64,000 nucleotides of DNA. It comes from Escherichia phage vB_EcoM_E9.1. The translations under genes and the position numbers were made by a program. The stretch lies in the sequence record PP886230, one strand, 5' to 3'. Of the stretch, positions 7,401 through 28,646 are shown piece after piece. The first letter of the stretch is position 1; every line of letters starts with the position of its first letter. Under the pieces are notes generated by a model. It made no database searches and was not told where the DNA came from. It saw only the letters and a program-made list of their open reading frames with translations.

Positions 7401-8555
7401 TTATGCGTTGTAACCAACTATTACGACTGAGCAGTCAAGCGGTTCTACTACTTTAAGAATTACATTATCATCTTCATCCACTTGTATTTCACTATGAACT
7501 ACATGATTGTCTGAAGAATATAATTGAACTTGTGGTAGTGCTTTACCATGTTCAGTTACTGGAACTGAGATAGAGTACATAGAGTCTTCACCGAGAACCC
7601 ACTCACTTAAAGTATATTCTTTATGGAAAGGAGTAGTATGCAGTGTTTTTCCGATTATACTCAAAGAAACAGGTAAATTATCAGTTTGATACACAGTAAT
7701 ATTACCTTCTGCGTCTACAGAAAGATCTACACCAACTTGATATAAGTCACCACTGTATGCTTGAAGTGCTAAGTACTGTCCACGATCATGAACATCAAAT
7801 GGAACAACCGCAGAAAATACACCTTCCGAAACAGGTTCAAATTGGGATAGAAGAACTGATGTAACAAAATCAATATCCTCACCACTTTCAAGAACATCAA
7901 ATTCCACCACTTTAGTGTTATAATATGGAGAAGTGAGCGTAGCAGTACCTTTCCCTGATTGTGTGATAACATCAACTGGAATTGTAAATGCATCATTAAC
8001 AAATTGGGTAGTAAAGTATTCTGTCCCGTCTGGTAATACGATTGTTATTACCATACCGTTAGTATCAATTTCTGAACCAGTGTTGAATAATTTACCACTA
8101 ATTGAGTCATTACCAACAAATACTGGTGAAATGAGAATATTATCTATATCACGATCTATAATACCACATTCAGGTGTATACATATGATACAAGGTTTGTG
8201 AACTACCTAAAATTGTTTTATGTAGCATAAATTTATATACAAATCCAGTATCAGTTTCTTGTGGCTCTTCAGAATATCCACGAACAAAGAAACAATTTTT
8301 ATTAATTTCACTTAATAGTTGGTCATTAGTTTTATTGTAATTTAATAGATAACCTTTATTATCTTTAGTTGTTATTTGTACTTTACGATATATTATATTA
8401 GTTCTTGGATCAACTAAATCATATAATCTATGGCTTCTTTGGCGATAGATTCTAATATTTTTTAGTCTAGTTCCATCGTTGAGGATTGCACCATCAACAA
8501 CATAACCACATTCACCAAACTTATAGCGTCCAGCCGCAGCAATTGACCTTGACAT
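7401..8555 (-). CDS. hypothetical protein (only minus-strand gene in the first 40 kb)
   Basis: ORF 384 aa; no recognisable motif. Confidence 0.6.
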   Translation of the reverse strand: MSRSIAAAGRYKFGECGYVVDGAILNDGTRLKNIRIYRQRSHRLYDLVDPRTNIIYRKVQITTKDNKGYLLNYNKTNDQLLSEINKNCFFVRGYSEEPQETDTGFVYKFMLHKTILGSSQTLYHMYTPECGIIDRDIDNILISPVFVGNDSISGKLFNTGSEIDTNGMVITIVLPDGTEYFTTQFVNDAFTIPVDVITQSGKGTATLTSPYYNTKVVEFDVLESGEDIDFVTSVLLSQFEPVSEGVFSAVVPFDVHDRGQYLALQAYSGDLYQVGVDLSVDAEGNITVYQTDNLPVSLSIIGKTLHTTPFHKEYTLSEWVLGEDSMYSISVPVTEHGKALPQVQLYSSDNHVVHSEIQVDEDDNVILKVVEPLDCSVVIVGYNA

Positions 8556-8615
8556 TTATCCCTCCATTGGTATAATTATTATAACGTATTTATTATGCAT
8601 ATCCAAAAAATGAGC

Positions 8616-9256: not shown

Positions 9257-9480
9257 TTACTGCAACTGTATATCAAGATATCAATGAAGAATTTCATTCT
9301 AAAATTGCGTTCTTATCATTTCCTGTACTCCCAGTAGTTGGGTCAACGTTGAATCTTACCATTTGTGGGTTTGAGAAATATTATAAAGTTCTAGATATTG
9401 AGTACTGTGCTGATGTATATTCATGTAATAGTGAAATTGCAATTCCAGTATCAATCGATATTATTGTAAAAGAGGTTTGA
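9253..9480 (+). CDS. hypothetical protein
   Basis: ORF 75 aa; GTG start preceded by GGAG. Confidence 0.45.
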   Translation: MITATVYQDINEEFHSKIAFLSFPVLPVVGSTLNLTICGFEKYYKVLDIEYCADVYSCNSEIAIPVSIDIIVKEV

Positions 9481-9938
9481 TTATGTTTAAGAATTTTATG
9501 GTTATCGTAGCAGTACTGTTTGGTACATCATGTTTTATTTCCCCAGTACACGCAGAAGAACAACGTCAAACTATTAAAACTATTGGGACTGGTAAAACTC
9601 CCCCTAAACGTACTGCTGACGAATACATGCCTGAAATGCGTGAACGTTATCGTCAGACATACAGGGAAAAACATGCTAATGATAAACCCATCAAGAAGCA
9701 TAAATGGGAAGTTGTTAAATCTCCTTCATTTTGTGCTGGATATGCTAAAGTAAAGATTGAGCAGCACAAAAACCAGTACTATAAAGATATGTATTCCTTC
9801 TATGACTCCAGAATTTCTGACACAGATATGATGGCAGGGAAGGTTGATAAAGAAGAATTTCTACAAGGCTATGATATGATGGACGATGACAAAATCATGG
9901 AATGCGTTGAAGTGTATGAAAAATACAGAGGCTTCTGA
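9477..9938 (+). CDS. secreted protein (signal peptide)
   Basis: ORF 153 aa; N-terminus MFKNFMVIVAVLFGTSCFISPVHA-EE looks like a Sec signal with AxA-type cleavage site. Confidence 0.6.
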   Translation: MIMFKNFMVIVAVLFGTSCFISPVHAEEQRQTIKTIGTGKTPPKRTADEYMPEMRERYRQTYREKHANDKPIKKHKWEVVKSPSFCAGYAKVKIEQHKNQYYKDMYSFYDSRISDTDMMAGKVDKEEFLQGYDMMDDDKIMECVEVYEKYRGF

Positions 9939-14967: not shown

Positions 14968-15177
14968 ATGAATTCAGTAATCTTTTTAGTAGTCGCTTTC
15001 TCTGTTAATTCCGGTGTACAAATAACCCCAATGAATTCCATGAATCAATGCATAGCAGTACGTGATAGTACATACGAACAAGTAAACAAAGATATTTGGA
15101 TTACAGTTAGTAAAGAACAAATGTGGTGTTACAATAGTAATACTAACACAAAGCTTATTGTAGGACAAACTCAATGA
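14968..15177 (+). CDS. hypothetical protein
   Basis: ORF 69 aa; hydrophobic N-terminus. Confidence 0.5.
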   Translation: MNSVIFLVVAFSVNSGVQITPMNSMNQCIAVRDSTYEQVNKDIWITVSKEQMWCYNSNTNTKLIVGQTQ

Positions 15178-16772: not shown

Positions 16773-17051
16773 ATGTCTTTTTCTAAAGAAGAACGTGACC
16801 TTATTAAAAAAGCAATTTGGTTTTATGCTAATGAAGGGAAGTGCGATGAAGAAAAAGCACGTGAACTGTGTAATATTCTTGAGAAGAAACAAGAACTGAA
16901 AGTGTATCGTATCCGTGATTTGGATGAAGGAGATCGTATTGTCCTAGCTGAAACAAAAGAAGAAGCAGAACAAATCTTCACTGATAAAAACGAAAATCCA
17001 CATTGGATGGAAGAAGTCTGTGATGTTAAAAAAGGTACTTATATCGATTGA
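16773..17051 (+). CDS. hypothetical acidic protein
   Basis: ORF ~92 aa; ATG 16773 after AGGAAA preferred over in-frame ATG 16758. Confidence 0.55.
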   Translation: MSFSKEERDLIKKAIWFYANEGKCDEEKARELCNILEKKQELKVYRIRDLDEGDRIVLAETKEEAEQIFTDKNENPHWMEEVCDVKKGTYID

Positions 17052-17076
17052 CAGTACTGAATAATAGCAGTATTAT
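17048..17076 (+). promoter_or_regulatory. sigma70-type promoter
   Basis: TTGACA (containing the TGA stop of the upstream ORF), 17-nt spacer starting GTACTGAAT, TATTAT; followed by a 13-bp-stem hairpin GGGAATGCAGTGA..TCACTGCGTTCCC. Confidence 0.5.
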
Positions 17077-17170: not shown

Positions 17171-17479
17171 ATGTTTCAAACTAACACTCAAGGTTTTGTA
17201 ATCATCGATTTGAATCAAAACAGCGGTCATTGGATGAAACCTACTGACGCATGTATGCAGTTTGATTTCTTAGGTTACAAAATTAGTGTAAGTACTGGTG
17301 CTTCTGTACTGAGAGGTGGTTGTATCGTTGAACATCTGGTAACTGATCCAGAAGGTCGTGAGTATGAAATCGCAGGTTCAGTACAAGATGCCATTATGTT
17401 TGTATGTCAGCGTGAAATGAATGGTTCGAATTCAAATGCACTGACTCATGCTCTTTCTCAAGAAGTGGAGGTTCGTTAA
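17171..17479 (+). CDS. hypothetical protein
   Basis: ORF 102 aa. Confidence 0.55.
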   Translation: MFQTNTQGFVIIDLNQNSGHWMKPTDACMQFDFLGYKISVSTGASVLRGGCIVEHLVTDPEGREYEIAGSVQDAIMFVCQREMNGSNSNALTHALSQEVEVR

Positions 17480-17724
17480 TGAAATACATTGTAGCAGTAC
17501 TCGTCGCATTTCTACTCACTGCATGTGATGCTTCTACCAAAGAACGTACAAGTGATTTTGTTCTACCTGCTGAATTAAAAGAAGCAGGGTGTAAGATTTA
17601 TCGTATGCAACAAGATGGTGCTGGTGCGACTTTATACACTGTGTACTGTCCTAATGCAAATACAAGTACTGGATACACTAGCGGTAAAACACGAATCAAC
17701 ACTTCCGTAATTCATGGAGAATAA
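17479..17724 (+). CDS. putative lipoprotein
   Basis: ORF 81 aa; N-terminus MKYIVAVLVAFLLTAC with lipobox L-T-A-C. Confidence 0.65.
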   Translation: MKYIVAVLVAFLLTACDASTKERTSDFVLPAELKEAGCKIYRMQQDGAGATLYTVYCPNANTSTGYTSGKTRINTSVIHGE

Positions 17725-17726
17725 CA

Positions 17727-18095
17727 ATGAGCCTTGATACAACACGTGCAGCAGATTTATTAACTCGTCTGAATGATGAAGAATATCTTGCTGAGATAAA
17801 GTACAAGCTTGACAAACTTGTTCGAAGTGCTGAAGTAATTGAAGTTGAAGGTCACTTACCGATGGATCAATACCATAGGTTCAAGGAAGATATGGTTTAT
17901 TATCCTAATGAAATTTGGATTGAGTGGCAACATTGGACTAACAAAACTCTTCGCATTGAAGGGTATTGTGTGAAGTATGAAAGTTCACCTGGTGATGTTA
18001 CAAAAACTCTATCAATTTGGTGTACAAAAACAAATGAACTCGTTGAGGTGAATTTGAATTATATGAATGGATTCCGTTGGGGTGATGTTAAATGA
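17727..18095 (+). CDS. hypothetical protein
   Basis: ORF 122 aa. Confidence 0.55.
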   Translation: MSLDTTRAADLLTRLNDEEYLAEIKYKLDKLVRSAEVIEVEGHLPMDQYHRFKEDMVYYPNEIWIEWQHWTNKTLRIEGYCVKYESSPGDVTKTLSIWCTKTNELVEVNLNYMNGFRWGDVK

Positions 18096-18367
18096 TTAAA
18101 AAACTCTTGACTGGAATCATTGTGTGCAGTACAATGTTTCTTACAGCATGTAATGATGACGGCAGGTTTAGTGCAAAAGACTTAGTTCGTCAGGATTGTA
18201 CATTCACAGGTAAGTCTTTTATTAACGAGTATGAAATATGTACACAATCAGGTCGTATCTGTGGTGGTTGGGAAAAACGACAGGAGCGATTGTATGTATA
18301 TGAATGCCCTGGACATCACAACAAAGTACTAAGCACACACAAACTTGTTTATGATAAGGTTGAATAA
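18092..18367 (+). CDS. putative lipoprotein
   Basis: ORF 91 aa; N-terminus MIKKLLTGIIVCSTMFLTAC with lipobox L-T-A-C; cysteine-rich. Confidence 0.65.
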   Translation: MIKKLLTGIIVCSTMFLTACNDDGRFSAKDLVRQDCTFTGKSFINEYEICTQSGRICGGWEKRQERLYVYECPGHHNKVLSTHKLVYDKVE

Positions 18368-18582
18368 TGACTACCAATGAAATGATGCAGGTTATTTGGG
18401 ATAAAGGTTGTGATATTAAAATCACTAGTACTGATGTTCGTGTATTCAAAACTGAATATATGGAGTACTTGGACCTTGATACTTATAATAATATTGTATC
18501 AATTGAACACAAAGGTGCAGTACTGGAAACCATTGACGTAGTACTCAAGAAAGCTACCGACCTATTAGGAGTGGCAGTGTGA
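18367..18582 (+). CDS. hypothetical protein
   Basis: ORF 71 aa. Confidence 0.5.
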   Translation: MTTNEMMQVIWDKGCDIKITSTDVRVFKTEYMEYLDLDTYNNIVSIEHKGAVLETIDVVLKKATDLLGVAV

Positions 18583-18735
18583 ATAACAAAGAGTGGGAAG
18601 ATTACCGCAAGAAGTGCAGGGAGTTTGATAAAGAACTTACTGGTACAGTGAATGCAGTAATGTGGGTATCTGTAATTATTGCAGTTCTTGCGTTGGGTGC
18701 TATTATTATTAATAAATTATTCTAAGGCGAATATC

Positions 18736-18936
18736 ATGTTTACTTTATATCTCGCAGTAGTTCTCACCAATGGTGAAATCACTCGTACTATTGGTGAAGG
18801 TGTATATAAAACACCAGACCAGTGCTACTCTGCCACTCATTGGCCTCGCGATAGTGGGGATGAAACTCGCACTGAATTCAAATGCATGAAAGTAAAAGGT
18901 GATTTTGTTAACCTTAAGGTTATCGAGGCGAAATAA
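18736..18936 (+). CDS. small membrane protein
   Basis: ORF ~66 aa starting MFTLYLAVVLTNG; ATG 18736 preferred over track start 18679. Confidence 0.5.
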   Translation: MFTLYLAVVLTNGEITRTIGEGVYKTPDQCYSATHWPRDSGDETRTEFKCMKVKGDFVNLKVIEAK

Positions 18937-19454
18937 TGGATATTAATGAGTTGTTGAAATTAGTGTTTAATCGTGAACGCCGCGATACAAGACCAATTGA
19001 ATATCAAGATGTGATACGCATTGAAACTGATTTCTGTTATGGTAAAACAACTCATGACCTTTTGAATCTCTCTGGAAAACGCTATGCTGATGTTTGTTTT
19101 TCAGAGAGAAGTGATGGTTCAGAAATAACGAGTACTGATATTGTTTGTTACGCACGCAGTGCTGATAAATCTTATGAAATAGAACTTATATATTCCCCTA
19201 GTTCTAAAACAAATCATCACCGCCATATTTTATATGATGTTTATACACCACCTGGTATTGCTGAATATTTTGTTATTGATTATAGTACTGAAGAAAATGT
19301 GTTTCAACAAAGTTTGATTCATAACTTTGAGGTGAATGATCCATTAGTACCAAAGTTGTTCAAACTACTTGACACCATAGATGTTGATTTTGAATTTGTT
19401 ATGTGCATTAGAACTTCTTTATTCAATGAATTCATGGAACTTTTTAATATATGA
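18936..19454 (+). CDS. hypothetical protein
   Basis: ORF 172 aa. Confidence 0.55.
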   Translation: MDINELLKLVFNRERRDTRPIEYQDVIRIETDFCYGKTTHDLLNLSGKRYADVCFSERSDGSEITSTDIVCYARSADKSYEIELIYSPSSKTNHHRHILYDVYTPPGIAEYFVIDYSTEENVFQQSLIHNFEVNDPLVPKLFKLLDTIDVDFEFVMCIRTSLFNEFMELFNI

Positions 19455-19672
19455 ATAGATACTATGTTGTGTATGAACACGTCTCTGAATTTAATAACAT
19501 ACGCGGGTTTTCCAGAGTAGTCACCAAGATGGATGTATTCATTCGTGCTCTTAGTGAAGTAGATGCACTGTTTAAATTGTTTGATGAAATTACAAAGTAT
19601 AACACACCTAAAACACACCGCTATGTGGAAACTGTACATAGCATTATGCTAACTGAAAGTGATGAGGAATGA
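19451..19672 (+). CDS. hypothetical protein
   Basis: ORF 73 aa. Confidence 0.5.
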   Translation: MNRYYVVYEHVSEFNNIRGFSRVVTKMDVFIRALSEVDALFKLFDEITKYNTPKTHRYVETVHSIMLTESDEE

Positions 19673-19675
19673 TAA

Positions 19676-19894
19676 ATGAATTTATATCTAGTTGAAGGTT
19701 TAGTACAAGTCTATAAACCAGAAGGTGAAGGTCAACGTTTTTCACACGTAGAAGAATTTAAGTACGTTGTACAGGCTGATGGTCAGTACGATGCGGAAAT
19801 TCAAGTAGATGAATCATTCCGTAAGAAAAATGAAATTGGTAAATTTCAATACCAGAACTTACAATATAAAGTATGGCCTAGTATAAATGACTAA
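19676..19894 (+). CDS. hypothetical protein
   Basis: ORF 72 aa. Confidence 0.5.
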   Translation: MNLYLVEGLVQVYKPEGEGQRFSHVEEFKYVVQADGQYDAEIQVDESFRKKNEIGKFQYQNLQYKVWPSIND

Positions 19895-20102
19895 GATGTG
19901 GTGGTGTCATGGTGTATATAACGTGTATGTAAATGGTAGATATAAAATGTCTAGTACCTATGCAAGACGTGTTAATGCGAACAACCAAGTTGATGCTGCT
20001 TGTGAGATCATTGAGTGGTATGCTGAGTTCAATGCACCTGACTATATGTACGAAATAGTTACAATAAATGTTGTACAAATCGATACATCTTTGATACAAT
20101 AA
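19887..20102 (+). CDS. hypothetical protein
   Basis: ORF 71 aa. Confidence 0.5.
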   Translation: MTKMWWCHGVYNVYVNGRYKMSSTYARRVNANNQVDAACEIIEWYAEFNAPDYMYEIVTINVVQIDTSLIQ

Positions 20103-20134
20103 CCACATCAAAAAAATTGCATCTGAGGATACTT

Positions 20135-20797
20135 ATGTTAGTTAATCTTAATTTCATCACTTCACCTGACTGGGCATTACGTGGAGTTTCTTTAAACTTC
20201 AAGGAAACTATGTTTGACTACATTGGTGAGTGTACATTGGTAAATGCAACTTTTGATCCAAATCATCCGTTTTGGGCTGAAATTCATGATCCAAATGTAA
20301 ACAACAATACATCTGTTATGACTATTGTCCAGACTAAACATGCAGGTATCCTTGCAGGTTATCGACCTGCACATGCAATTGAACACTTCACTGATTACGA
20401 TGTCGTGGATGAATACCCAATGATCCATGAAGATGGAAGTCTATACACATCTGAAGACTTCCGTGCTATCTTTAATAGTACTGATGATATTCTACCAAGT
20501 GGACGTCCACGTCCTGAGTCTTATCTTATGCATCCATCTTATGGTGTAGCAGATACGCTTGAACAGATTATGAATAAGTACAAGAACCTAATTGAAGGTC
20601 CAGAAGAAATTGTCCTGTGCTATCACCCAGTACTGAAGTCTGAACAACCAAAGGATGGTGGATGGCGTTGGCATAAGAATGGTGAGTATATCGGTACTAA
20701 ACGAAGTAAAGAACGTTTTGAGTACTTGTATGATGAGCCAGATGTTGATGTGGTTTTGTGTTATAATTTTATTAAGGTGAAAAAGAAATGTATCTAG
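20135..20797 (+). CDS. hypothetical protein
   Basis: ORF ~220 aa; ATG 20135 after GAGGA preferred over TTG at 20117. Confidence 0.55.
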   Translation: MLVNLNFITSPDWALRGVSLNFKETMFDYIGECTLVNATFDPNHPFWAEIHDPNVNNNTSVMTIVQTKHAGILAGYRPAHAIEHFTDYDVVDEYPMIHEDGSLYTSEDFRAIFNSTDDILPSGRPRPESYLMHPSYGVADTLEQIMNKYKNLIEGPEEIVLCYHPVLKSEQPKDGGWRWHKNGEYIGTKRSKERFEYLYDEPDVDVVLCYNFIKVKKKCI

Positions 20798-21030
20798 TAC
20801 TAAGTTTTGTTGTTGCACTATTGTTTATGTTCTATCCTACACTAGTGGCATTAGCCACTAGGCGAACGATGGTAGATCTCACTACTGTATTCTTGCTAAA
20901 CGTGGCATTAGTACTGGTGTCTATTATCATTCCAGTGAGCTTTACAGTTATTGATATTATTTCGGTATTACTCTTCGTGTTAAGTTATCTTATGCTTATT
21001 GAAGAAACAAATGTTGACAAACGTTCGTAG
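20788..21030 (+). CDS. small membrane protein
   Basis: ORF 80 aa, two hydrophobic helices. Confidence 0.55.
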   Translation: MYLVLSFVVALLFMFYPTLVALATRRTMVDLTTVFLLNVALVLVSIIIPVSFTVIDIISVLLFVLSYLMLIEETNVDKRS

Positions 21031-21041
21031 TACTGTATAAT
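21014..21041 (+). promoter_or_regulatory. sigma70-type promoter
   Basis: TTGACA, 16-nt spacer ending in AGTACTG, TATAAT. Confidence 0.6.
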
Positions 21042-21088
21042 GGTTCCTGTAGTCTGAAACTTAACACTTAAACTTGAGGTAAAAAAAT

Positions 21089-21415
21089 ATGCTATCAGTA
21101 CTAATTTCAATTCCGTCTTTAATTCTGATTTGGCTTCTGGTTTACGAATGCTTTATTACTGATGATAATGATAAAAAAGAGTTCTCTGAGTTGTTTATGC
21201 TTGATTCACCGATTGTGCGTATTTTCTATACAGTCGTTGTGGTTTCAGTAATTGTATGGATTTTGAGTTTTATCTTCCCACTCGGTGCAGTAGTTAAAAC
21301 TTTGGATTTAGTTGAGAACTTTGTTGCAATTATGTGGCTAATCAAAGCACTATTTGCAGGAAATGTTAAAATTTGGATTGATATTATCAAATTCAAGTTC
21401 ACGAATAAGATGTAA
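21089..21415 (+). CDS. membrane protein
   Basis: ORF 108 aa, hydrophobic. Confidence 0.55.
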   Translation: MLSVLISIPSLILIWLLVYECFITDDNDKKEFSELFMLDSPIVRIFYTVVVVSVIVWILSFIFPLGAVVKTLDLVENFVAIMWLIKALFAGNVKIWIDIIKFKFTNKM

Positions 21416-21493
21416 CAGTGAAAATATCTCTATAGTATTAAATACTTCTGTACATATATATAGTACAGAAGTATTTCTCGTTAGAGGTTTGTT

Positions 21494-21853
21494 ATGAAGA
21501 GTTATATAAAATTAATAGCACTTGTGTGTGCATTATTTTCATGTTTTAGTTATGGTGCAGCAGCAGAAACATATTGTCGTAGTACTAAGGGAACGTGGCA
21601 TGTATTGACTAACGACCCTAGAAATGGTAAAAATATAGTTGTTGATGGTGTGATTTATCGTTTTAAAGTAGAAAGTATTATCGGTAATAAAAAAATCTCG
21701 ACTTATAGAGATGATTCTGGTACATTAGCAAACGTAATATTAATTGTAGACCCAAGAACTGGTAATGGTGATATCTATATAGTAATTTACTTGGACTCAT
21801 CGGTACGCCGTGACCTAGATATAGATAAATTGAACTTACACTGTGAAATATAG
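21494..21853 (+). CDS. secreted protein (signal peptide)
   Basis: ORF 119 aa; N-terminus MKSYIKLIALVCALFSCFSYGAAA-ET. Confidence 0.6.
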   Translation: MKSYIKLIALVCALFSCFSYGAAAETYCRSTKGTWHVLTNDPRNGKNIVVDGVIYRFKVESIIGNKKISTYRDDSGTLANVILIVDPRTGNGDIYIVIYLDSSVRRDLDIDKLNLHCEI

Positions 21854-21864
21854 GACTTAAAAAA

Positions 21865-22242
21865 ATGGTAAACACTATTTTACTTTTGTTGTTGAATATT
21901 CCAATTATTCTGTCTTTTTTAATTTCTATTTTTATGGCAGGATATTGTTTAGTTGCAGTAATTCATTTCATTTTAACAAACAAATATGTCCTAATTTCTA
22001 AGCTTGATTCTATTTTTGCTTGCGATTCGATTGCTTATAACTTGTGGTTAATTTGTTCTTGCATTATGGGAGTAACTTTCCTTCTGTATGTATTTGATGT
22101 CCTTGACCAAAAGTTCGTATACATCAGTACTGGATTGGCTCTTTATCCTGCTACGTGGTACTTGATTTACGTTGGTGATATATGGTATAGTACTTATAAA
22201 GAATATCAGTACAAGAAATCACTTAACGTTGGAGGAAAATAA
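21865..22242 (+). CDS. multi-pass membrane protein
   Basis: ORF 125 aa. Confidence 0.55.
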   Translation: MVNTILLLLLNIPIILSFLISIFMAGYCLVAVIHFILTNKYVLISKLDSIFACDSIAYNLWLICSCIMGVTFLLYVFDVLDQKFVYISTGLALYPATWYLIYVGDIWYSTYKEYQYKKSLNVGGK

Positions 22243-22244
22243 TC

Positions 22245-22595
22245 ATGAAAATTATTTTATTTTTTGTATGTATGTTAATGTGTGGATTGTCATATGCTGA
22301 ACCATTGGAAGGTTTAGTTTGTACAGATGGTAATATTAAACATATCTATCAAGGTGATAGTGACGATCGAGATATTGTATATATTGATGGACAATCATAT
22401 ACGTTTGTTAAAGAGCATACAGTAGGCGACATTAGCTTCACTGAGTTTTCTAACGACACAGACCCTAACTTCTTAGCGTTTATTGAAGTAGATGTATATG
22501 AAGATAGTAATGGCACACAATATGCTAAATTAGTTATGATGCGTCGTGGTGCTAAAGAAACTAGTTTTGGTGGCTTGTGTAAATATAAGGATTGA
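22245..22595 (+). CDS. secreted protein (signal peptide)
   Basis: ORF 116 aa; N-terminus MKIILFFVCMLMCGLSYA-EP. Confidence 0.6.
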   Translation: MKIILFFVCMLMCGLSYAEPLEGLVCTDGNIKHIYQGDSDDRDIVYIDGQSYTFVKEHTVGDISFTEFSNDTDPNFLAFIEVDVYEDSNGTQYAKLVMMRRGAKETSFGGLCKYKD

Positions 22596-22599
22596 TATT

Positions 22600-22791
22600 A
22601 TGTTGATTTATCAAAGTGATAATATTCGTGTTATGCAGCATCCCTACTTACAAATCTTTGATGTGCAGCAGTATATGGAAGGTGATGACCCAAGAACCTA
22701 TGGTCGTAAGTATGATTACTTCACTGTAAAGCAGTGTAAAAATATTAACGAAGTACGACAATTAGTTCAAGAACTTCAAAACAAAGGTTGA
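22600..22791 (+). CDS. hypothetical protein
   Basis: ORF ~63 aa; ATG 22600 after AAGGA; TGA stop lies inside the TTGACT of the downstream module. Confidence 0.5.
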   Translation: MLIYQSDNIRVMQHPYLQIFDVQQYMEGDDPRTYGRKYDYFTVKQCKNINEVRQLVQELQNKG

Positions 22792-22817
22792 CTTCGGTCA
22801 GCCTTTTTTGTTATAAT
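22785..22817 (+). promoter_or_regulatory. fused terminator-promoter module
   Basis: Hairpin AGGTTGAC-TTCG-GTCAGCCT plus T6; TTGACT in the 5-prime stem arm serves as -35, 18-nt spacer, TATAAT. Confidence 0.65.
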
Positions 22818-22845
22818 TCTCTTAATAAATTAGAGGATTTTAATT

Positions 22846-23286
22846 ATGTATGTATATCGTTTTGAACTTAAATTTAGTTACATTGAACCTAACTTAGATC
22901 CTGCACGAACTGTAGGTCCGTTTGCACGGTATTCAACTAGATACAGTACTAAAAATGGATTTGACCGTTTGCTTATGACTACACCTTCTCAATTCCAACC
23001 TGAACCAACTGAGGATGGGATCTATTCAATCAAAAGTGGATGGGTATTTGGCTGTCAAAGTTTGAAAGATTTGTTCAGATTCTTCACTATGGACTTGGGT
23101 AAATTGCATCGTGCTGGGTTTGCTATATCTGTATATGAAGTTCCAGACCACCATGTAGACATTGGTCGTAATCAGGTTCAGTACTATTGCGGTAGTGCTA
23201 AATTAGTTCGTATCATGTCAGTTAAGGAAGCAAAGGATGAGTTCCGACAAAGTAAAAGAGAAACACATGAGGTAATATATGGATAA
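22846..23286 (+). CDS. hypothetical protein
   Basis: ORF 146 aa. Confidence 0.55.
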   Translation: MYVYRFELKFSYIEPNLDPARTVGPFARYSTRYSTKNGFDRLLMTTPSQFQPEPTEDGIYSIKSGWVFGCQSLKDLFRFFTMDLGKLHRAGFAISVYEVPDHHVDIGRNQVQYYCGSAKLVRIMSVKEAKDEFRQSKRETHEVIYG

Positions 23287-23623
23287 AACTCAAATAGAAT
23301 TAAAGAAATTTGTTTCATTCTATTTTCCTGATGACCCACGTAATTCACAAAAAGATATTGAATATTATAATATCCTATCTAAACAGTTAATGAGAAAGTT
23401 TCAACAGTGTTTAACTATATTCAATACAGATGGAAGACGTAGATACCGAATCGTTTCAATGAATGATGAAAACGCAAATTTCTTTGATTACGATGTAGTT
23501 TTTAGAGCATATAATGATGATCGTATAAAATTAAATTATGATCAAATTATACTTGACCTGAATGTTATATGTGTTATAATCACTCACGTAGCCGAACTTA
23601 ATGGTTTTAAAGAATGGTATTGA
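23279..23623 (+). CDS. hypothetical protein
   Basis: ORF 114 aa. Confidence 0.55.
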   Translation: MDKTQIELKKFVSFYFPDDPRNSQKDIEYYNILSKQLMRKFQQCLTIFNTDGRRRYRIVSMNDENANFFDYDVVFRAYNDDRIKLNYDQIILDLNVICVIITHVAELNGFKEWY

Positions 23624-23637
23624 ATAGAGGATAACAT

Positions 23638-23904
23638 ATGAAGCTTAAATTACAATATAATGGATTTACTTTACGTAATGATACTGAATTTATTAATCGT
23701 TCTCCTGGTGCTGAACTGTTTTTACGAGAGATGAACATTCCTTTCATCATTACTACAGTGGGCGACCGTGAAGTTCTACAATATGCAGAGCATCCGATTA
23801 TTGATGTTCCTTGGTACTCTGAGCATATGTACATGGATATGGCACGTCGCTACAACTGTAAGTTCGTAGTTGAAGGTGATAAAATTACAGTCGAATTTAA
23901 ATAA
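23638..23904 (+). CDS. hypothetical protein
   Basis: ORF 88 aa. Confidence 0.55.
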   Translation: MKLKLQYNGFTLRNDTEFINRSPGAELFLREMNIPFIITTVGDREVLQYAEHPIIDVPWYSEHMYMDMARRYNCKFVVEGDKITVEFK

Positions 23905-23916
23905 GGTAAATTAAAA

Positions 23917-24210
23917 ATGATCAGTACTTCAGTTAATGAAAGCATCGTCGCTGACGTAGAAATGGTTAAAGAATGTGCAGATGAAACTCTTCGTGATATG
24001 TACATTAATGATTTAATTACTGAATACGGTAGTCGTGGTGTACACGAATTTATTCGTTTAAGTGGAGAGTTGATGAAAAATCGAATTCGTATGAAGCTTA
24101 ACGTACATCCAAAAGCATGGGCATTTACATTAAAATACGCAGAAGATATTGTGAATTTGCGTCGAACTGAAGTATATGAACGTTTGCACAATGGTATGTT
24201 AGATAAATGA
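23917..24210 (+). CDS. hypothetical protein
   Basis: ORF 97 aa. Confidence 0.55.
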   Translation: MISTSVNESIVADVEMVKECADETLRDMYINDLITEYGSRGVHEFIRLSGELMKNRIRMKLNVHPKAWAFTLKYAEDIVNLRRTEVYERLHNGMLDK

Positions 24211-24262
24211 TTGTAAAAAAGGAATTCTTAAATGAATTCCTTTTTGTTTATAAGGTATAGTA

Positions 24263-24484
24263 ATGAAATATATAGTACTTGTACTGATATTATTCAGTAC
24301 TGTTGTAAGTGCTAAACAAAAAGAATATGTTAAATGTATAAATTATGAAGAGAAATATGTTGAAACATATAAAAAAAGTATAATTAAAAACGTTTCGATT
24401 ACTAACAGAGCAACAATCATTGTACTTAAAAATGGGTTAATTATGCTATATAAACCACACGTTAAATGTGAAATTATTAATTGA
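24263..24484 (+). CDS. secreted small protein (signal peptide)
   Basis: ORF 73 aa; N-terminus MKYIVLVLILFSTVVSA-KQ. Confidence 0.55.
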   Translation: MKYIVLVLILFSTVVSAKQKEYVKCINYEEKYVETYKKSIIKNVSITNRATIIVLKNGLIMLYKPHVKCEIIN

Positions 24485-24491
24485 GGAAATT

Positions 24492-25064
24492 ATGAATCGT
24501 AAAGGTCGTTTTAAAGTATCAAAAAAGAACAAAAGTTCTAGGTTTAAACCTATTGTTTTAACAGTTAAATCTAACAAAGAATTAACTGCACTTAGTAAAA
24601 AGATAATTTCATCTAAGATTGAAGTATCATACGTAAATTCATTAAAATATATGAATGTCAAACCACTGGACCAACTCATTTCACTTATATTTGAACGTAA
24701 TGATTTTGAGATATCAGTAGATGATTATAGAGCCTATAATGCTGGTTTCATTAATGTTACTTGTAATAAAAAACTAACTGAGTTGGAAAATTTGTCATGT
24801 ATAATAAATCTAGATAAAGGTGTTGTGAAGTACCATTTTGTACATTTCACTAATATCAATAATGGAATGGGTGTACAATCCAGACCTATAGTGCCTACGT
24901 GTGATGTTACTAAATTAGCAAAGCTCAATGATGAAGAATATTTTCAAGAAAGCATTGTAACTGAGCATTTAGATGATATAATAGCTACTTACAAAGAATG
25001 CATATGGGTGTTGAATGCTATAAAACCTAAATTGTGTTTAATGAATATTGTTCGTGATTTATGA
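24492..25064 (+). CDS. hypothetical protein
   Basis: ORF ~190 aa; ATG 24492 after GAGGAA preferred over track start 24468. Confidence 0.55.
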   Translation: MNRKGRFKVSKKNKSSRFKPIVLTVKSNKELTALSKKIISSKIEVSYVNSLKYMNVKPLDQLISLIFERNDFEISVDDYRAYNAGFINVTCNKKLTELENLSCIINLDKGVVKYHFVHFTNINNGMGVQSRPIVPTCDVTKLAKLNDEEYFQESIVTEHLDDIIATYKECIWVLNAIKPKLCLMNIVRDL

Positions 25065-25077
25065 ATGGGGAATCGTA

Positions 25078-25521
25078 ATGAGTTGGGTAAATGTTAATAG
25101 TATTGAACTTAACGAACAAGATATTTTTGCATTTGTAAATTTAACTAATAACACAGTACTAAAAGGGCGTTTGTTCAGTGCTAGTGATGGGTACAAATGG
25201 ATCTCTTTGATGGATGATAGTGGTGTGATTTATAATGTAATGCAATTACCCCAATGGGTATATAGTAACACTGCTGACGATGTTCTTACCGCAGTTATGC
25301 GTGAGTTTGAAAAACTCCCAGGTGGTGATATCAAAAACAAAGTTTTTAATGCAGAACGTAAAAATTATACAGCACAGCAGTTGGAATCCCTTGCCATTGC
25401 TGCTTATCAAGCTGCTATTAAGAAGCCAGAGTGCGTTATTCTTAAGTATGTACCAGACTTAAAACTTACGTTGGAAGACATGGATGCATTCATTTTTACA
25501 TCTGAACTTGATCAGTACTAA
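25078..25521 (+). CDS. hypothetical protein
   Basis: ORF ~147 aa; ATG 25078 preferred over track start 25048. Confidence 0.5.
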   Translation: MSWVNVNSIELNEQDIFAFVNLTNNTVLKGRLFSASDGYKWISLMDDSGVIYNVMQLPQWVYSNTADDVLTAVMREFEKLPGGDIKNKVFNAERKNYTAQQLESLAIAAYQAAIKKPECVILKYVPDLKLTLEDMDAFIFTSELDQY

Positions 25522-25636
25522 TTTAACTTTGGGACAACCATTCTTATTATGATATAATGTTTTATGTCATTCGATATAAATGACAACGGAACTATAAATA
25601 TTATAGTAAAATTTATCTCTTATAGGAGTTATAAAA

Positions 25637-26020
25637 ATGGTTGATAAATGGAATAAGAAAGATCCATCACATGATGTTGATATTTCTGGTCTAGACAATG
25701 CACATAAGCACAAGTATCTAGATTCACTAGGTCTTCTAAAACCAGACCAAAGTCTTGCACATGATCGTCCATCCCGTGAAAAAGCATTTAGCCTAGAATC
25801 ACTAGGTCATGAGCTTAATCGTGTGTTTGAGGATCACCCAATCTATGTACGTGATATTATCGAGAAACTTAAAGTAACTCCTAAAGAGCACTTTAAAGCA
25901 ACTGTACACTCTGCATTCCGTGCATTACATGAATCTCTAAAGAAAACTCACAATCTTCGTAAAATTCATGATGAAATCGTGAATGCAATCGAAAGTGAAA
26001 AACATAAGTTCAAGAAGTAA
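25637..26020 (+). CDS. hypothetical helical protein; domain paralogous to N-terminal part of 26266 ORF
   Basis: ORF 127 aa; LDSLGLLKP..IIEKLKVTPKEHFKATVHSAF resembles VNSLGLLNA..IVKELQSVPKEELKVKAQAVL in the 425-aa ORF. Confidence 0.6.
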   Translation: MVDKWNKKDPSHDVDISGLDNAHKHKYLDSLGLLKPDQSLAHDRPSREKAFSLESLGHELNRVFEDHPIYVRDIIEKLKVTPKEHFKATVHSAFRALHESLKKTHNLRKIHDEIVNAIESEKHKFKK

Positions 26021-26027
26021 TAAAAAG

Positions 26028-26060
26028 GGGTTGACTAAGGTCAGCCCTTTGTTGTATCAT
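26028..26060 (+). promoter_or_regulatory. fused terminator-promoter module (variant)
   Basis: Hairpin GGGTTGAC-TAAG-GTCAGCCC, short T-run, TTGACT -35, 18-nt spacer, TATCAT. Confidence 0.55.
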
Positions 26061-26089
26061 AAATTCTCAATATAACTGAGGTATCATAT

Positions 26090-26203
26090 ATGCAAGGTTT
26101 GAAATTTGTAGTTGCTGCACTCATCGCCGCAGTACTGGTTGGTGGTGTATTCTATGTAGTGGATCAAAAAGTAAATCCACCTGCACAAGAACAATCTAAG
26201 TAA
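26090..26203 (+). CDS. micro membrane protein (37 aa)
   Basis: MQGLKFVVAALIAAVLVGGVFYVVDQKVNPPAQEQSK; single TM helix; sits between two terminator-promoter modules; below the ORF-track length cut-off. Confidence 0.45.
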   Translation: MQGLKFVVAALIAAVLVGGVFYVVDQKVNPPAQEQSK

Positions 26204-26210
26204 CAAAATA

Positions 26211-26242
26211 AGGTTGACTTCGGTCAGCCTTTTCTTTATACT
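26211..26242 (+). promoter_or_regulatory. fused terminator-promoter module
   Basis: Hairpin AGGTTGAC-TTCG-GTCAGCCT plus T-run, TTGACT -35, 17-nt spacer, TATACT. Confidence 0.6.
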
Positions 26243-26265
26243 ATAAATATAGACATAGAGAAAAA

Positions 26266-27543
26266 ATGAAATCTATGGAGAGAAATCAAATGCCAAGTAA
26301 TTTTACTGATAAAAATGGTGGTAACATGGCTGGTCACTCTGATAAATGGAGTGAACGCAACCGCCGTCCAAATAGTTATCAAGCAGGTCAAGGTTCACGT
26401 GGATCACGTAACCAAGGAACTGGTCTAGCTGGTAAAGCAAACGCAGAAGCAGGTGAAGTTAAGAGTACTGAGAACATGACTGAGCTAGAAAAGCTACGTT
26501 ATGTTAATTCATTGGGACTTCTTAATGCTACACAAAAACAACGCCTAGCTGATATGGAACGTGAAGAAAAAGAAAAATCTGCTCCTGCTAAAGAAGAACC
26601 AAAACAAGAAGCACCAAAGGCGGTTAACCCTGTCAAAGAACTGTCGGATAAGTTAGGTAAGATTTTTGCTAATAAACCACAACTTATCCAAGGTATTGTG
26701 AAAGAATTGCAATCTGTACCTAAAGAAGAATTAAAAGTCAAAGCACAAGCTGTGCTTGATGCAATGAGTGGAAATACCAGTACTGAACCAACTGAAGTAT
26801 TCAGTACTATAATGCGTGCACTTGAAGGTACGCAACAAGGTGATGTGCCTGCACAAGAGGAAGTAAGTCTTGAAAGCGTACTTAAAACATTTGATAGTAT
26901 TGGTAAAGAAGACCGTGCTAATGCTCAACAAGTTAAGAATGTACTAGCTAAGTTAGAAAACCGTCTGGAAGGTAAAGACGATAAGATTAAATTAGTATCT
27001 GATGCAGTTAACGATGCACTTAAATCTTATGTACAAGGTGAAAAGAGTCGTTTTGTAACTGCAATGGATGCTGCATTCAATACTATGAAAAAGTATGAAG
27101 CTGATCATGGTGAGAAGGTTACACGAGATGGTTATCTGATGCGTGATGATGAAGAAGGTGCAGTAGAACAGAACGATGTTCATTCAGACGAAGAAATTGA
27201 TGACATGGAAGCTGAACTGTCACAAGACCGCCAAATGACTGAAAAATCCCATAACGAACTACAGAAATTAATGCAATGGGTTGCAGATGTTGGTGAAAAA
27301 GCTGGTGCTGATAAGAAGAGTATAAACCGAAATCTTAGTTGGATTAAAGATAAAGTTGGTAACAACGCTCGTAAACTACAAAAAGCGTGGACTGATGTAG
27401 TGAATGGTGCTGTTGACATTGATGTTGAATCCGGTGAGGCATATGATTATGCATTGACTACACTTGATGACTCTTTCCGTGATTACGAAAATGGAAATGT
27501 AACTCCTTGGGAAAAGGACATCATGAGCAAATACGGTAAATGA
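26266..27543 (+). CDS. large acidic charged protein
   Basis: ORF 425 aa; E/K/D-rich; internal segment paralogous to ORF 25637. Confidence 0.65.
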   Translation: MKSMERNQMPSNFTDKNGGNMAGHSDKWSERNRRPNSYQAGQGSRGSRNQGTGLAGKANAEAGEVKSTENMTELEKLRYVNSLGLLNATQKQRLADMEREEKEKSAPAKEEPKQEAPKAVNPVKELSDKLGKIFANKPQLIQGIVKELQSVPKEELKVKAQAVLDAMSGNTSTEPTEVFSTIMRALEGTQQGDVPAQEEVSLESVLKTFDSIGKEDRANAQQVKNVLAKLENRLEGKDDKIKLVSDAVNDALKSYVQGEKSRFVTAMDAAFNTMKKYEADHGEKVTRDGYLMRDDEEGAVEQNDVHSDEEIDDMEAELSQDRQMTEKSHNELQKLMQWVADVGEKAGADKKSINRNLSWIKDKVGNNARKLQKAWTDVVNGAVDIDVESGEAYDYALTTLDDSFRDYENGNVTPWEKDIMSKYGK

Positions 27544-27552
27544 TAAAACAAA

Positions 27553-27577
27553 AGGTTGACTTCGGTCAGCCTTTTTT
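27553..27577 (+). terminator. intrinsic terminator (GGTTGAC-TTCG-GTCAGCC family)
   Basis: Perfect 7-bp stem, TTCG loop, T7 run; downstream -10 is weak. Confidence 0.7.
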
Positions 27578-27614
27578 TGTAAATACAAAAGAGGAATTAA
27601 GAAGAGGGATTACA

Positions 27615-27866
27615 ATGAAAAAATATATTATATTTGGAATTGTATTATTTTCCAGTACTGCTTATGGTGCAGATTATCATTGCTCCGTAGCAAGGCAGGA
27701 TTTCAGAAATGGGGAGTTCTATACTACCTCATACACAAAAGGAATAATACACGACACCGACAGAACTATTGGATTTAATGCGTTTGACAACAAAGATTCA
27801 TATACTTCAGGTATACTATCTGAGCGTAAGACTGATGTAATGGGAATAGAAAAAGAGTTCCGGTGA
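27615..27866 (+). CDS. secreted small protein (signal peptide)
   Basis: ORF ~83 aa from ATG 27615 (MKKYIIFGIVLFSSTAYG-AD); track start 27540 would read through the terminator hairpin. Confidence 0.6.
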   Translation: MKKYIIFGIVLFSSTAYGADYHCSVARQDFRNGEFYTTSYTKGIIHDTDRTIGFNAFDNKDSYTSGILSERKTDVMGIEKEFR

Positions 27867-27876
27867 TTCAGTAGCA

Positions 27877-28176
27877 ATGTGCAATGGCATTGAAAGTACT
27901 AAAACAATTTATTATAATAATGAACGTAACTATCGTTTTCATAATTTAACCACAAATAAAAGTTTACTATTTTACAATTGTAAAGAAGTAATACTCCCAT
28001 CAGACAATAGCTGTACTCCAACTAATCAACCCCCAGCACAATGTAATACTCCCTCTGAACCTGATAAAAATAAAAAAGACAAAAAACCTTTAAAAGATAA
28101 AAAGAAAGATAAAAAACCTAATCCGTTTAAAAATAATAAACAAGCACAACCCGATATGACGTGTAAAATAAAATAA
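27877..28176 (+). CDS. hypothetical lysine-rich protein
   Basis: ORF 99 aa; C-terminal KNKKDKKPLKDKKKDKKPNPFK low-complexity tail. Confidence 0.5.
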   Translation: MCNGIESTKTIYYNNERNYRFHNLTTNKSLLFYNCKEVILPSDNSCTPTNQPPAQCNTPSEPDKNKKDKKPLKDKKKDKKPNPFKNNKQAQPDMTCKIK

Positions 28177-28185
28177 GGATATATA

Positions 28186-28605
28186 ATGAAAAAGATTTTT
28201 TTAAGTATTATTTTAGTACTTTTTAGTTTTAATGTATATGCAGCAGATGCTAAACAGGTTGCAAATACAGTAAAAGATGTTATAGTAGATAATGCTCCTA
28301 CATTAGAGGAAATTGGGGTAAAAACTTGTGATATAGTAATATATAATTTAGTTAATGATGAACGAGTTATGTTGAATACGTATGAACAAGTAGTCCCATT
28401 GGTTGAATCTGGTGATGCTTTTAGCTTTACATATAAAGTTAAATTAACAGGAGGGGTTGAAGTTAATCTTGACATTGATACCGCTTCAGTACTAAAAGAT
28501 AAACTAGGATATGTGTTCAATCGTATTCGTGAAGAAGGTCATCTTAAGTATGTTTATGAAAGTAAAATACTAAAACGTGCAATAGTTATAGAAAACTGTA
28601 AATGA
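28186..28605 (+). CDS. secreted protein (signal peptide)
   Basis: ORF 139 aa; N-terminus MKKIFLSIILVLFSFNVYA-AD. Confidence 0.6.
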   Translation: MKKIFLSIILVLFSFNVYAADAKQVANTVKDVIVDNAPTLEEIGVKTCDIVIYNLVNDERVMLNTYEQVVPLVESGDAFSFTYKVKLTGGVEVNLDIDTASVLKDKLGYVFNRIREEGHLKYVYESKILKRAIVIENCK

Positions 28606-28614
28606 TAATAAAAG

Positions 28615-28646
28615 GGTTGACTTCGGTCAGCCTTTTTTGTTATGAT
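28615..28646 (+). promoter_or_regulatory. fused terminator-promoter module
   Basis: Hairpin GGTTGAC-TTCG-GTCAGCC plus T6, TTGACT -35, 18-nt spacer, TATGAT. Confidence 0.65.

Follow-up and report, generated by a model that had tools for sequence, protein, structure and literature searches.

Small phage proteins that act in the envelope of the infected cell include examples from phages T4, T5, T1, and phi80. T4 Spackle (gp61.3), which is made early, inhibits the gp5 lysozyme in the periplasm; it is disulfide-bonded, with a cleaved signal and 75 mature residues (PMC7677548), and opposes the tail lysozyme of an incoming phage. T4 Imm is a small early inner membrane protein with two transmembrane (TM) segments that blocks DNA entry, and its gene adjoins the predicted lipoprotein gene imm.1. 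Llp of T5 and Cor of T1 and phi80 are small early lipoproteins of the outer membrane that bind FhuA and are encoded beside the receptor-binding protein gene; both carry an intramolecular disulfide, which in Llp is described as "constraining the termini" (PMC9586334). Besides, the MliC/PliC family, including Brucella PhiA and Neisseria ACP, comprises bacterial periplasmic lysozyme inhibitors.

The window analyzed here is a stretch of 64,000 nucleotides from Escherichia phage vB_EcoM_E9.1 (PP886230), which is 99.7% identical to phage JP4. The phage is an Asteriusvirus jumbo coliphage of the 121Q/PBECO4 group with a genome of ~350 kb and a GC content of ~33%, and all the genes carry the annotation "hypothetical." Convincing export signals were found in eight genes (named by start position) of a 19-kb block at 9.4 to 28.6 kb of the window, whose counterpart in 121Q lies at 92.9 to 105.2 kb (Table 1). 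Export was predicted by our own heuristic rule set, not by SignalP or LipoP. To be called a type I signal peptide, an N terminus needed a positively charged n-region, an uncharged hydrophobic h-region of ~10 to 18 residues, small side chains at -3 and -1, and a mature part that begins with polar residues, features found in 9483, 21494, 22245, 24263, 27615, and 28186. A lipobox was defined as [LVI][ASTVI][GAS]-C preceded by an n-region with K/R and an h-region free of charge, and was found in 17479 and 18092, for which acylation is predicted.

Table 1. Features of the block. Hyphens in signal peptides mark predicted SPase I sites; SD, Shine-Dalgarno sequence.
Feature	Position	Strand	Length (aa)	Properties
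Perfect sigma70 promoter	8549..8576	+		TTGACA-N16-TATAAT; heads unit containing 9483
Sec-type signal-peptide protein	9483..9938	+	151	Signal peptide 1-24 (VHA-EE); 2 Cys in mature part
Doubtful exported protein	14968..15177	+	69	Good SD; short uncharged hydrophobic N terminus; 2 Cys
Sigma70-like promoter (11/12)	17048..17076	+		Heads unit with both lipoproteins
Predicted lipoprotein	17479..17724	+	81	LTA-C16; Asp at +2; conserved Cys38/Cys57 pair; SD GGAGG
Predicted lipoprotein	18092..18367	+	91	LTA-C20; Asn at +2; 4 further Cys
Doubtful exported protein	18736..18936	+	66	Short uncharged hydrophobic N terminus; 2 Cys
Small membrane protein	20788..21030	+	80	2-3 TM; no family match
Perfect sigma70 promoter	21014..21041	+		Membrane-protein/barrel operon
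Membrane protein	21089..21415	+	108	3 TM; partner upstream of 21494; phrog_31401, function not assigned
Sec-type signal-peptide protein, "terminal-clasp" beta-barrel	21494..21853	+	119	Signal peptide 1-24 (AAA-ET); Cys at mature positions 4 and 93 of 95
Polytopic membrane protein	21865..22242	+	125	Partner upstream of 22245; phrog_31707, function not assigned
Sec-type signal-peptide protein, "terminal-clasp" beta-barrel	22245..22595	+	116	Signal peptide 1-18 (SYA-EP); Cys at mature positions 8 and 94 of 98
Terminator hairpin	22784..22805	+		Embedded TTGACT box; closes membrane-protein/barrel operon
Sec-type signal-peptide protein	24263..24484	+	73	Signal peptide 1-17 (VSA-KQ); Cys at mature positions 8 and 52 of 56
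Terminator hairpin	27552..27573	+		Precedes 27615-28605 cassette
Sec-type signal-peptide protein	27615..27866	+	83	Signal peptide 1-18 (AYG-AD); one Cys
C-terminal half	27877..28176	+	99	No signal peptide; 5 conserved Cys; Lys/Pro-rich tail
Sec-type signal-peptide protein	28186..28605	+	139	Signal peptide 1-19 (VYA-AD); Cys at mature positions 29 and 119 of 120
Terminator hairpin	28613..28634	+		Ends 27615-28605 cassette

In a whole-genome census of the sister genome EC22.5-2 (97% identical, 611 genes), the heuristic flagged 16 genes. Eight of them were among the 47 genes in the equivalent of the block, against 8 of 564 elsewhere (1.2 expected in the block; hypergeometric P = 5e-6), and in the 50-kb early region of T4 only 2 of 92 genes were flagged (Fisher P = 0.003 versus the block). 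An earlier note on this DNA had regarded the number of exported small proteins as notable, which these counts bear out. Its two lipoproteins with L-T-A-C lipoboxes (Cys16 and Cys20) were also recovered; of its seven signal-peptide proteins, six are firm and 14968 is doubtful, and its gene at 9477 does carry an export signal, but position 9477 is a TTG and translation probably begins at the ATG at 9483, 7 nt downstream of the SD sequence AAAGAGG.

At a GC content of ~33%, codons for Phe, Ile, Leu, and Lys are enriched, and most of these N termini could be chance hydrophobic stretches or uncleaved anchors, the more so as the predictor is home-made and 14968 and 18736 are marginal. Against this, composition-matched reversed or shuffled proteins gave only ~2 hits per 611, or 0.15 expected in the block versus 8 observed, and the heuristic recovered T4 Spackle, the 121Q-type o-spanin, and the TM-anchored endolysin as positive controls. 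The hydrophobic cores of the firm candidates span 15 to 18 residues and lead into small-x-small sites and then polar domains. Signal peptides and lipoboxes were retained in orthologues at 33 to 78% identity while the sequences changed. Furthermore, Cys parity was not random, since 7 of the 8 mature parts had an even, nonzero Cys count, whereas among small cytoplasmic proteins the share was 28% (P = 9e-4). Chance hydrophobicity is thus a highly improbable account of the block and, as far as sequence can tell, is mostly refuted where the eight firm candidates are concerned. The conservation of signal features despite divergence, the even Cys counts, the strong clustering, and the recovered controls independently support export of the eight to the envelope, and confirm at the sequence level that the block is rich in small, predicted disulfide-bonded exported proteins and lipoproteins, which represent about seven unrelated families.

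Between the window and phage vB_Ec-M-J, the type I signal-peptide proteins were less conserved than their cytoplasmic neighbors (Mann-Whitney P = 0.009). The vB_Ec-M-J block carries extra inserted TM and signal-peptide genes, and that of phage Munch has a different set of exported genes. The exported genes evolve fast and are gained and lost between related phages, as in an arms race. They sit in transcription units with sigma70-consensus promoters at the head. We found nine perfect TTGACA-N16-18-TATAAT promoters, all on the plus strand (0.24 expected), and six copies of a recurrent hairpin terminator that delimit cassettes. Because of the promoter sequence, we infer early expression of the block, and the "early genes" label used in the earlier note fits this picture.

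In Pfam, PHROGs, NCBIfam, PADLOC, and PDB sequences, no candidate resembled in sequence any protein whose function is known. The 9483 protein (heuristic score, 6.7) matched only phrog_36332, a group without known function, with nothing in Pfam, NCBIfam, or PDB sequences. In 14968 and in 18736, a candidate added here to those of the earlier note, the hydrophobic stretch is just 9 to 10 residues long and lacks K/R; 14968 is borderline for the heuristic, its vB_Ec-M-J orthologue is unflagged, and its PHROG profile begins at residue 25, while 18736 has a DUF1482 match below threshold. Compared with their vB_Ec-M-J orthologues, 24263 (49% identity) retained its signal features and both Cys residues, and 28186 (41% identity) retained its signal features and Cys spacing; 24263 showed no homology to the barrel proteins 21494 and 22245, and 28186 had no family or PDB match. 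In phage Munch, the equivalent of 27615 and 27877 is a single gene of 194 aa, and 27877 lies in the +1 frame with its own SD sequence; the two are the N- and C-terminal halves of one split ancestral exported gene. The start at 27615 was correctly placed in the earlier note, with AGAGGG 7 nt upstream, and the vB_Ec-M-J annotation uses the same short form. Some records begin the gene farther upstream, at the ATG at 27540; this start was rejected, since it lacks an SD sequence and overlaps the hairpin that precedes the cassette.

The lipoprotein 17479 belongs to phrog_902 (E = 1.5e-13), a family without known function that spans 571 phage records and 251 protein clusters from highly dissimilar virulent phages that infect enterobacteria, Vibrio, and Aeromonas. 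Among 101 members, the lipid Cys, Pro30, and Cys38 were invariant and Cys57 nearly so (at least 90%); the +2 residue was Asp in 54, Glu in 15, and Asn in 12, and the Pfam model LPAM_1 matched 8 members of the family. In the Lol pathway of E. coli, Asp at +2 leads to inner membrane retention, and because the window protein has Asp at this position, it is probably retained there. The AF2 model was of moderate quality (pLDDT 68) and had no PDB fold match (best Foldseek E = 1.9). The gene lies among small early genes here and among replication genes (polymerase, ligase, and helicase) in Felixounavirus and Vibrio phages. The Munch orthologue of 18092 (41% identity) retained the lipobox, C36, and C72, with Asp at +2, and a possible remote link between 18092 and the 17479 family was seen by hhalign (probability, 33%).

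Like Llp and Cor, 17479 and 18092 are small phage lipoproteins, in their case with conserved Cys pairs, and they might be outer membrane lipoproteins of the same type that block the receptor used by the phage itself, binding it from the periplasmic side. Indeed, 17479 resembles Llp in having ~65 mature residues and one predicted disulfide, and the vB_Ec-M-J record names its orthologue a Cor superinfection exclusion protein. That label, however, is unsupported, since the match to the Cor family phrog_1119 (E = 0.0079) covers only residues 1 to 48, mostly signal peptide, and is far weaker than that to phrog_902. No significant sequence or fold match to Llp or Cor was found for 17479. Moreover, Asp at +2 predicts the inner rather than the outer membrane, the family occurs in phages without a common receptor, and in all phages examined the gene is surrounded by early or replication genes, not placed beside a receptor-binding protein gene. 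We therefore regard a receptor-blocking role as improbable. An o-spanin (Rz1-like) identity, suggested because o-spanins too are small lipoproteins of phages and have Cys residues in the periplasm, was rejected for both proteins. The 121Q spanins are gp511/gp512 at ~245 kb (245,337 to 246,017; PMC6139136 supplement), away from the block, and neither 17479 nor 18092 has an i-spanin-like neighbor; genes 17171, 17727, and 18367 on their flanks lack a TM segment.

The barrel genes 21494 and 22245 are paralogues (blastp E = 3e-4, with a cross-PHROG match), each preceded by a membrane-protein gene. This order was also found in vB_Ec-M-J, Munch, and three metagenomic contigs, and 21089 orthologues adjoin barrel genes in Munch and the metagenomic relatives; 21865 is only 43% identical to its vB_Ec-M-J counterpart. 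The family is small, with 18 representatives in 1.84 billion proteins. The barrel model is all-beta (pLDDT 80), and the predicted structure is that of the MliC/PliC fold, an exported eight-stranded antiparallel beta-barrel of ~90 residues. Two Cys residues are invariant in the alignment, one just past the cleavage site and one near the C terminus, and E. coli MliC has a Cys pair at equivalent positions, as compared by position only. The predicted resemblance to PliC/MliC lysozyme inhibitors is at the fold level only: none of 24 members matched Pfam MliC (PF09864) even at E ≤ 10, hhalign against E. coli MliC gave a probability of 11% over the signal peptide only, and the lysozyme-binding loop motifs of MliC (SxSGAxY and xxxKG) are absent from the alignment. 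Unlike MliC/PliC proteins, the barrels are encoded by virulent jumbo phages and always paired with a small membrane-protein gene.

Such a fold would fit a Spackle-like role, although Spackle is an alpha-helical bundle and the modeled barrels are all-beta, without sequence similarity to it. Searching the 611 predicted proteins of the sister genome with T4 Sp by blastp and phmmer returned nothing better than E = 1.3, no candidate had a PHROG match to the Spackle family, and T4 Imm had no match in the genome by the same programs. Although the Imm/imm.1 arrangement echoes the pairs of membrane and exported proteins in the block, 20788, 21089, and 21865 did not match the Imm family (PF14373, Imm_superinfect), and no candidate matched a known superinfection exclusion protein. 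In vB_Ec-M-J, the "immunity to superinfection" labels derive from a subthreshold Pfam match, one extra gene there matching Imm_superinfect at 15.7 bits against a cutoff of 27.9. The absence of Sp and Imm homologues leaves this role vacant, which we counted in favor of superinfection exclusion.

We tentatively propose that the exported proteins alter or seal the envelope, giving superinfection exclusion and protection from lysis from without, an explanation that as a whole is plausible but somewhat short of probable. The earlier note took such proteins to block superinfection or to guard against host defenses associated with the envelope; the fast divergence, the gene turnover in the block, and the PliC/MliC-like fold are indirect evidence in this direction. 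Host RNA polymerase with sigma70 would transcribe the units of this virulent jumbo phage, and the envelope would thereby receive a whole array of small proteins. These comprise the two lipoproteins, six or more soluble Sec-exported proteins that disulfides would stabilize, in several by joining both chain ends, and a similar number of small polytopic inner membrane proteins. Soon after infection, later phages or free progeny would then be unable to puncture the envelope or inject. The duplicated two-gene module would supply a periplasmic binder, and its barrels would neutralize tail-associated peptidoglycan hydrolases, doing the job of Spackle with a different fold. Plausible targets are the gp5-like and T4-lysozyme-like baseplate proteins of Rak2-like phages (PMC5259590).

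A PliC/MliC-like fold would suit an inhibitor of the phage's own endolysin equally well. The endolysin of Rak2-like phages has an N-terminal TM domain and a lysozyme domain and is therefore exposed to the periplasm before lysis (PMC5259590), and our census recovers the 308-aa endolysin as exported. The barrels and their membrane partners might restrain this membrane-tethered enzyme, or the holin, until the proper time, by analogy with T4 rI. The latter is a periplasmic antiholin. We consider this unlikely, since the spanins and the endolysin gene (gp532) of 121Q are both far from the block (93 to 105 kb), the block genes are behind sigma70 early-type promoters and not among late genes, and fast divergence and duplication fit a variable external target better than the phage's own enzyme.

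Exclusion, with a lysozyme-inhibiting barrel module, remains our preferred reading, but the evidence from export, early promoters, and rapid evolution applies equally to proteins that disable host envelope functions or envelope-associated immunity for the infecting phage itself. Transporters, stress sensors, membrane-anchored defense systems, or outer membrane vesiculation might be the targets. That 17479 is conserved in such diverse virulent phages speaks for a host target that is itself conserved, not for a phage-specific receptor, and the +2 Asp in most family members suggests action at the inner membrane. However, no match to any defense or antidefense model was found, and the literature on the 121Q-type group yielded no experimental precedent for periplasmic antidefense proteins. 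Such a takeover is hard to tell from exclusion by sequence, and we judge it rather unlikely.

Under the exclusion explanation, 17479 would act at the inner membrane on a target conserved across gammaproteobacteria. We infer the localization and every function of the exported proteins from these data; they are probably tools that remodel the envelope of the infected cell.

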